The notes below the pieces were generated by a model. The model searched no databases. It saw only the letters and a program-made list of their open reading frames with translations, and was not told where the DNA came from. Position numbers and translations under genes: made by a program. Shown in pieces: positions 2,225-18,698 of a stretch of DNA of 24,484 nt; within the stretch, counting starts at the first letter, position 1, and each line of letters opens with the position of its first letter. The stretch spans positions 1-24,484 of the forward strand of contig JZWU02000023.1 of NCBI GenBank assembly GCA_000960865.2. The letters run 5' to 3'. Origin of the DNA: Vulcanisaeta sp. AZ3. Its GTDB lineage: Archaea; Thermoproteota; Thermoprotei; Thermoproteales; Thermocladiaceae.

Positions 2225-2515
2225 ATGCCGCGTAAGCAGACTGTTAGGATTGTTGAGAGGAAAAGAGATGTCCTAGAGTTGTTAATTAAGGAGGGTGAAA
2301 TGCCTACAAATGAGATTGTTAAGAAGACGAACCTAAGCCACAGTCAAGTCTTTTACGCATTAAAGCTACTGCAGAGGGATGGGTTAATTAGGGAGATTAA
2401 GAGAGGTAAGGTGGCTTATTGGAAAGCCAGCGACAATGCCCAAGAAGCCCTAAAGACCCTTGAGCAGGAGGTTAAGGAGGAGACCATGGGAGAGGAGGAA
2501 GCTGAGGAGACTTAA
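2225..2515 (+). CDS. Small winged-helix DNA-binding protein with acidic C-terminal tail
   Basis: 96 aa with wHTH pattern (TNEIVKKTNLSHSQVFYALKLLQRDGLI...GKVAYW). TTTAAAA about 30 nt upstream. Confidence 0.8.
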   Translation: MPRKQTVRIVERKRDVLELLIKEGEMPTNEIVKKTNLSHSQVFYALKLLQRDGLIREIKRGKVAYWKASDNAQEALKTLEQEVKEETMGEEEAEET

Positions 2516-2548
2516 GCTTTTTAAGCCATGGTATTGGTTAGGAACTAA

Positions 2549-2602
2549 GTGATGACGTGGGCAGCAACCGAAAAATGAAATGACGAGACTGTCTCACACT
2601 GA
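2549..2602 (+). ncRNA. Box C/D methylation-guide sRNA (predicted 23S rRNA targets)
   Basis: C GTGATGA 2549-2555, 12-nt guide CGTGGGCAGCAA, D' CCGA 2568-2571, C' ATGACGA 2580-2586, 12-nt guide GACTGTCTCACA, D CTGA 2599-2602. Intergenic, with TTTTTAAG about 25 nt upstream. Confidence 0.9.
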
Positions 2603-2711: not shown

Positions 2712-3407
2712 TTATAGATTAATGAGTATTTCGATTTCATCACCATCCTTAAGGTTTAGCTTATCGCGTAACTTATAGGGTGATATAACCTCTATAGTAT
2801 CAGGCCCGTGGTGCGTCCTCTCGATTACCAATACGGCAGCTGGCAGACCTCCTACAGACGCCTTGAGGCACTTAACGCCGCCATAAGTTCTTGCGCCATT
2901 ACTAAAGCCCTCAATGTAGATACCGGGTAATGCGTCTAGGTATAACTTATACCTAATGTACTCGGGTTTTAATTTAACATTGAGTGTGCCTGGATATGGC
3001 TTAAATCCCAGCTTCTCTGTGAATTGCTTAACGTAGCCCTCAAGACTCATGTAGAAGCTGCCCTCACCCAGTCCAGAGGTTACAGTGCCAACCAACCTAA
3101 TTACTAACTTCTCGTTGAGGTACTGCCTAATTGTGTCAATAACAAATCTTAACGCCTCAGAGGCTTTCGGTGTGAACTTAATCATTAATTGACCATTAAC
3201 TGTGGTTTTCTCCACTAGACCATCTCCAACTAATCTACTGATTATCTTGAATACGTTTTGGGGTGTTGTACCAACATCATTTGCCATGCGTGTTAGGCTA
3301 AGTGGCGTAAATTCTCCTTCATTAACTCCATACTTAATTAGTAGTATTAAGTATGGTACCCTCCTAAGCATCTTATAATTCAATCCTAACACCACACCCT
3401 CCTTCAT
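2712..3407 (-). CDS. ribK: CTP-dependent riboflavin kinase with N-terminal wHTH (RbkR-type bifunctional regulator/kinase)
   Basis: N-terminal HTH (SLTRMANDVGTTPQNVFKIISRL). C-terminal GTVTSGLGEG...YPGTLN...ERTHH...EVISPYKLR matches the archaeal riboflavin kinase signature. Confidence 0.93.
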   Translation of the reverse strand: MKEGVVLGLNYKMLRRVPYLILLIKYGVNEGEFTPLSLTRMANDVGTTPQNVFKIISRLVGDGLVEKTTVNGQLMIKFTPKASEALRFVIDTIRQYLNEKLVIRLVGTVTSGLGEGSFYMSLEGYVKQFTEKLGFKPYPGTLNVKLKPEYIRYKLYLDALPGIYIEGFSNGARTYGGVKCLKASVGGLPAAVLVIERTHHGPDTIEVISPYKLRDKLNLKDGDEIEILINL

Positions 3408-11628: not shown

Positions 11629-11677
11629 ATGAAGATTATGGTAGCCGCTGATGAGTGATGAAGGTCCAAAGCGCAGA
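11629..11677 (+). ncRNA. Box C/D methylation-guide sRNA (predicted tRNA-Gln U34 guide)
   Basis: C ATGAAGA 11629-11635, 12-nt guide TTATGGTAGCCG, D' CTGA 11648-11651, C' GTGATGA 11655-11661, 12-nt guide AGGTCCAAAGCG, D CAGA 11674-11677. Intergenic, with TTTAAA at 11590-11595. Confidence 0.8.
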
Positions 11678-18647: not shown

Positions 18648-18698
18648 GTGATGAGAATAATAGGCACCGAAAGGAATGAGGAACTTCCAGGCTTCTGA
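18648..18698 (+). ncRNA. Box C/D methylation-guide sRNA
   Basis: C GTGATGA 18648-18654, 12-nt guide GAATAATAGGCA, D' CCGA 18667-18670, C' ATGAGGA 18676-18682, 12-nt guide ACTTCCAGGCTT, D CTGA 18695-18698. TTTAAT about 25 nt upstream. Ends 4 nt from the convergent nnr stop. Confidence 0.88.

Follow-up and report, generated by a model that had tools for sequence, protein, structure and literature searches.

In archaeal box C/D ribonucleoproteins, L7Ae binds the two box pairs of the sRNA, Nop5 positions the guide-target duplexes, and fibrillarin methylates the base opposite N+5, the fifth guide nucleotide upstream of box D or D'; the spacers that hold the guides are about 12 nt long (PMC7229835). 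About half of 489 sRNAs are double guides, and in the same survey, in which target prediction allowed no bulges, U2552 of 23S rRNA (E. coli numbering, as throughout unless stated otherwise) is a predicted target in five of seven archaea (Dennis et al. 2015, PMC4644070). In Pyrobaculum, some 45% of sRNAs have both targets within 100 nt, and a chaperone (folding-aid) role has been proposed for all such double-target sRNAs (Lui et al. 2018, PMC6009581).

Two published sRNAs bear most closely on the locus considered here. Pyrobaculum sR115 has a D' guide predicted to target U2670, the equivalent of U2552, and a D guide predicted on A2695, the equivalent of A2577, which lies 25 nt after U2670; A2695 is the D target in five of six species, and G2696 in one (Lui et al. 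2018, PMC6009581, tables S1 and S4). Ignicoccus hospitalis sR33, with a read figure of 1120, places its D' guide on U2826, again equivalent to U2552, and its D guide carries no target prediction under the no-bulge rule of that survey (Dennis et al. 2015, PMC4644070, supplementary file 1).

The locus compared here with these RNAs lies in a window of 24,484 nucleotides, the whole stretch of Vulcanisaeta sp. AZ3 DNA that was analysed. From box C to box D it covers positions 2549..2602 of the plus strand, and it sits in a non-coding gap between the gene of a winged-helix HTH protein (2225..2515, plus strand) and the convergent gene of a CTP-dependent riboflavin kinase (2712..3407, minus strand). 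Both neighbours serve as context only; the kinase has 75-83% identity to eight named Vulcanisaeta records. The elements follow one another in the order C, D', C', D over 54 nt, in agreement with the archaeal box C/D layout of about 50-60 nt: box C (GTGATGA, 2549..2555), a D' guide of 12 nt (2556..2567), box D' (CCGA, 2568..2571), a variable loop of 8 nt (2572..2579), box C' (ATGACGA, 2580..2586), a D guide, also of 12 nt (2587..2598), and box D (CTGA, 2599..2602). Boxes D' and C' each have one mismatch to consensus, and both spacers agree with the archaeal 12-nt rule. The complete C-D'-C'-D sRNA with two 12-nt guides that the first-pass annotation had proposed was confirmed in its boxes and spacers. 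A TATA-like element at 2518..2524 (plus strand) is the probable promoter of the sRNA itself or, alternatively, a T-tract terminator of the HTH gene.

The arrangement is a real archaeal box C/D sRNA gene. A strict box scan returned 41 matches in the genome against one or two in each of five order-3 Markov simulations, and of 200,000 trials with shuffled guides 0.10% gave two 23S matches within 100 nt. All 12 same-genus genomes keep the sRNA at the syntenic locus, and the two-guide pattern matched 23 of 120 genomes of the class, every one in the same family as Vulcanisaeta sp. AZ3, with zero matches for a reversed-pattern control. These 23 matches and one added genome form the family set of 24 homologues, the genome under study included. 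Throughout the set the D' guide has A at N+5 and the D guide has T, while the boxes and the loop drift; the N+5 bases belonged to the search pattern, whereas their register relative to the degenerate D' boxes did not. In all 24 homologues boxes D and C' have a canonical or near-canonical sequence, box D' reads CTGA in ten and is degenerate in the remainder, and the variable loop ranges from 3 to 15 nt.

A TTWWWA word starting 34-27 nt upstream of box C is found in 16 of the 24 homologues, against 0-4 of 24 for other 8-nt windows clear of this peak. The TATA-like word is also present in a genus in which different genes flank the sRNA, and its recurrence there and across the set argues that the sRNA probably has its own promoter. 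The gene context (HMG-CoA synthase, HTH protein, riboflavin kinase) is kept in Vulcanisaeta and one other genus and is absent in two further genera of the family. An Rfam scan of the locus placed no family above threshold, the match returned being a sub-threshold one to sR17 (RF01144; 18.5 bits against a gathering cut-off of 36, E 2.9).

Two other box C/D candidates occur in the window, both on the plus strand. The D guide of the first (18648-18698) pairs over 10 nt, 9 of them Watson-Crick (WC), with the tRNA-Phe D-loop of this genome, and for its D' guide neither the rRNA proxy nor 23 tRNAs offer a good target. The second (11629-11677) has a CAGA box D and a weak likeness to Rfam sR14 (21.9 bits against a cut-off of 38), and neither of its guides exceeds 6 WC pairs in the rRNA proxy. 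Across the genome, 11 of the 41 candidates have two 23S targets within 100 nt, several of the double-target candidates lying in the vicinity of the peptidyl-transferase centre (PTC), for example at 2582, 2590, 2593 and 2611.

The assembly of Vulcanisaeta sp. AZ3, which is 89.85% complete, yielded no 23S gene; nor did four of five close draft genomes, the fifth having fragments that end before the target region. Guide pairing was therefore tested on the 23S rRNA of complete relatives (n=5), four from the same genus and one from the same family. The best site of the D' guide sets N+5 (window position A2563) on the U of the A-loop, with 8 WC pairs and one G-U over 2550-2558, in four of the five; in the fifth, G012, the rRNA differs at this site. 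The best site of the D guide, with N+5 at window position T2594, has 9 of 9 WC pairs in all five. Alignment to E. coli rrlH identifies the N+5 sites as U2552 for the D' guide and A2598 for the D guide, 46 nt apart. A2598 we take to be the closing base of the helix 93 tetraloop. The relatives' rRNAs agree with the original proposal: the D' guide reads U2552, the D guide pairs perfectly with 2595-2603 and sets N+5 on A2598, and the two PTC segments are about 46 nt apart.

On same-genus 23S, as distinct from the organism's own, each guide forms 9 bp with a WC pair at N+5, which agrees with the archaeal box C/D requirement of about 9-10 bp. In G012 the C2558U change of the 23S is matched by a change from G to A in the D' guide, which forms 9 WC pairs on its own rRNA against 7 on the other four tested. 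In 11 of the 24 homologues the D' duplex has just 6 contiguous pairs if bulges are disallowed. A stretch of some 1,500 nt upstream of the 23S gene in one relative, comprising most of the 16S gene, offers weaker sites, at 6 and 7 WC pairs. The CC A-loop read by the D' guide is typical of Thermoprotei (PMC9976906). The assignment of the D' guide to U2552 is well supported by this pairing, and Um2552 is, with high confidence, the modification to be expected from the sRNA.

Genes for fibrillarin, Nop5 and L7Ae-family proteins are present in the genome, the L7Ae matches being family-level. An RlmE-like protein had no match in the 89.85% complete assembly, and a full-length match was found in 3 of 120 class genomes, none of them in the order of Vulcanisaeta sp. 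AZ3; the absence of rlmE that had been put forward for checking is supported. The three genomes with a full-length RlmE-like protein, at 221-231 bits, belong to a single family. In the proposed mechanism, a free-standing sRNA would be transcribed from its own promoter, and its C/D and C'/D' motifs would bring together L7Ae, Nop5 and fibrillarin. With the D' guide paired to helix 92, the A-loop of 23S, fibrillarin would 2'-O-methylate U2552 and so perform the task of RlmE, which is apparently absent from the lineage. The D guide would pair mainly with 2595-2603 and direct methylation to A2598, with A2577 at most a minor target. Taken as a whole, this explanation, from own promoter to Um2552 and Am2598, is somewhat favoured on the sequence evidence. 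By analogy with the double-target sRNAs of Pyrobaculum, the RNA may also aid folding.

The assignment of the D guide is complicated by a repeat. The 23S rRNA carries CGUGAG twice, at 2573-2578 and 2594-2599, and the D guide consequently also pairs over 9 nt with N+5 on A2577. This second-best site has 7 WC pairs and two G-U pairs, and its duplex energy is -13.4 kcal/mol, against -17.5 kcal/mol at A2598. Among the 4096 possible 5' halves of the D guide, the real one ranks 10th for A2598 and 251st for A2577. On one proxy 23S, 9-11 contiguous nt pair at the A2577 site for the D guides of all 24 homologues. At position 2596 all 12 23S sequences found in the family of Vulcanisaeta sp. AZ3 have U, which completes the A2598 duplex, and all 17 found in the sister family have C. 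Of 23 sister-family genomes, 20 share the two-guide layout, and the D guide of 19 of these 20 is a version fitting A2577; this correlation between U2596 and guide reflects one lineage split, not independent events, and is suggestive only. On balance the pairing tips moderately towards A2598 as the sole or dominant target of the D guide, with A2577 predicted to be at most a minor one. Of the first-pass reading overall, the gene, both N+5 assignments and the absence of an RlmE-like protein stand; the single D-guide target that it implied does not, a near-repeat in the 23S rRNA giving a credible second site.

A tentative and rather doubtful alternative is that the sRNA is a three-site guide, in which D' marks U2552 and the single D guide, kept as a compromise fitting both sites, marks A2577 as well as A2598. 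In a sister class, a looser pattern matched 25 of 201 genomes, against 12 control matches; five of the 25, one with a variant D guide and four chance-like, were omitted. The remaining 20 genomes, from six families, have the same guide pair and share the D-guide 5' half CCTAG, which the search pattern did not specify, and C2579 and U2596 are found in all 8 carriers with a 23S match. The sister-class guide forms 10 pairs and one bulge at each site, with energies of -14.8 and -15.0 kcal/mol and N+5 on an A at both. Its 5' half comes 10th of 4096 when judged by the weaker site, and 61st and 227th when each site is judged singly. Solely the 2577 site pairs with its A at N+9, and solely the 2598 site with its U at N+7. 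Guides with two predicted targets are, moreover, already in print. Set against this, one family member ranks first both for A2598 and for the pair of sites, and the likeness of the sites is such that any guide well suited to one will score highly on both. The bulge could instead reflect a 10-nt limit on archaeal guide duplexes, with the spare spacer looped out (PMC7229835), and a bulge at N+7 may block catalysis. The guide of Vulcanisaeta sp. AZ3 itself prefers A2598 by 4 kcal/mol.

In its broadest form the compromise would make this sRNA, Pyrobaculum sR115 and Ignicoccus sR33 one old family across two Thermoproteota classes, whose D guide uses the PTC repeat to methylate A2577 and A2598, tracks positions 2579 and 2596 by lineage and was narrowed to A2577 where 2596 became C; this too is conceivable rather than probable. 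If true, Am2598 in the helix 93 loop would join the archaeal modification map, and the RNA would be a natural case of one guide retained as a two-site compromise.

Nearly the same D guide also occurs beside other D' guides at five loci in three further families, which looks like guide swapping; among these other D' guides, one pairs 12 of 12 nt with its own 23S at U2514 and another pairs with a proxy 23S over 10 nt at G2543. Separately, the 23S of genome G016 carries substitutions flanking the A-loop, and the two-guide pattern was unmatched in four of four genomes of its genus.

It is unlikely that the true target of the D guide is A2577, as predicted for sR115, and that the A2598 match is a by-product of the repeat. 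The shared D' target and register of sR115 speak for this reading, as does G088, which retains nearly the same D guide despite C2596 and in which A2577 is the slightly better contiguous site. A pattern search of five complete family genomes for a separate perfect A2577 guide found none in four and a single match in all, at control level. The equivalent eukaryotic base is presumably methylated, as yeast Am2946. A text search of PMC11121408 gave no match to Am2946. Against A2577 as the only target, guides of the family have a G at N+8 and a U at N+9, forming WC pairs at 2598 and wobble pairs at 2577; these bases belonged to the search pattern and are also present in all 12 same-genus loci that synteny identified. 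The sister family, by contrast, has A at N+8, a WC pair at 2577, in 19 of the 20. The energies favour 2598 in every family member computed.

Still less is to be said for a reading in which only U2552 is methylated and the D guide keeps helix 93 open as an anchor or folding chaperone, with no stable methyl mark; it is quite improbable. Conserved non-methylating guide interactions have been described in Pyrobaculum, the sister-class duplexes are bulged, and A2598 is missing from the target tables of both surveys (PMC4644070, PMC6009581; no matches for 2872 or for A2716). Yet both surveys disallowed bulges and dealt with other species, and the published non-methylating cases carry a mismatch at N+5, where the present guide forms a WC pair next to a box D and box C' that are conserved in the homologues as described. 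That box-like words have fallen together by chance in an intergenic region, a reading to which the weak Rfam match might lend something, is ruled out, with a negligible residual probability, by the box-scan simulations, the shuffled guides, the reversed-pattern control, conservation with drifting flanks and the compensatory guide-target change in G012.

A2598 was not surfaced as an archaeal methylation site by a full-text literature search judged on titles and the starts of abstracts, and supplements or structure models may hold it; no mapped table of archaeal 23S 2'-O-methylations surfaced in the search listings. The main text of a preprint on the P. calidifontis ribosome (10.1101/2024.11.12.623245) names none of 2552, 2577 and 2598, which its supplements or figures may list. 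The preferred reading, with Um2552 and a D guide directed mainly to A2598, would make the RNA the probable source of Um2552 in a family with no detectable RlmE. Um2552 is important for large-subunit assembly in E. coli. The predicted methylation at A2598 is the new element relative to the two published archaeal target tables. Since neither the class of RNA nor the U2552 target nor the paired-guide arrangement is new, the locus is chiefly of value for annotation; of wider interest is whether two repeated sites in the catalytic centre share one guide.

Compared with the described archaeal sRNAs, neither the paired-target arrangement nor the targeting of U2552 is unusual. The locus is probably related to sR115 and sR33, to judge from the guides. 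With sR115 it shares the layout and the D' guide core, including a D' guide that targets U2552, and the D guide is in the same register, its core being two transitions away. The two differ in that the D guide of the sR115 family is predicted on A2577, whereas here the best site is A2598 with A2577 second, and the 23S rRNA of Pyrobaculum has C2596, which spoils the A2598 site. The three flanking proteins match none of 20 sister-family loci, so that orthology is argued from the guides alone. The D guide of sR33 shares both the terminal GTCTCAC and its register and has an A at N+9, for which one bulge is needed at either site. Sulfolobus acidocaldarius sR7, Methanopyrus kandleri sR17 and Nanoarchaeum equitans sR10 are also predicted on U2552, the A-loop's first nucleotide, but their second guides differ (alignment positions G2783, G2733 and U2880, respectively; PMC4644070), and they probably represent separate families. 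Outside the archaea, the same product, Um2552, is made in yeast by the eukaryotic snoRNA snR52 with Spb1 as back-up (PMC11121408), whereas bacterial RlmE and the SPOUT-type RlmR of Thermus make it as stand-alone proteins (PMC12123411).
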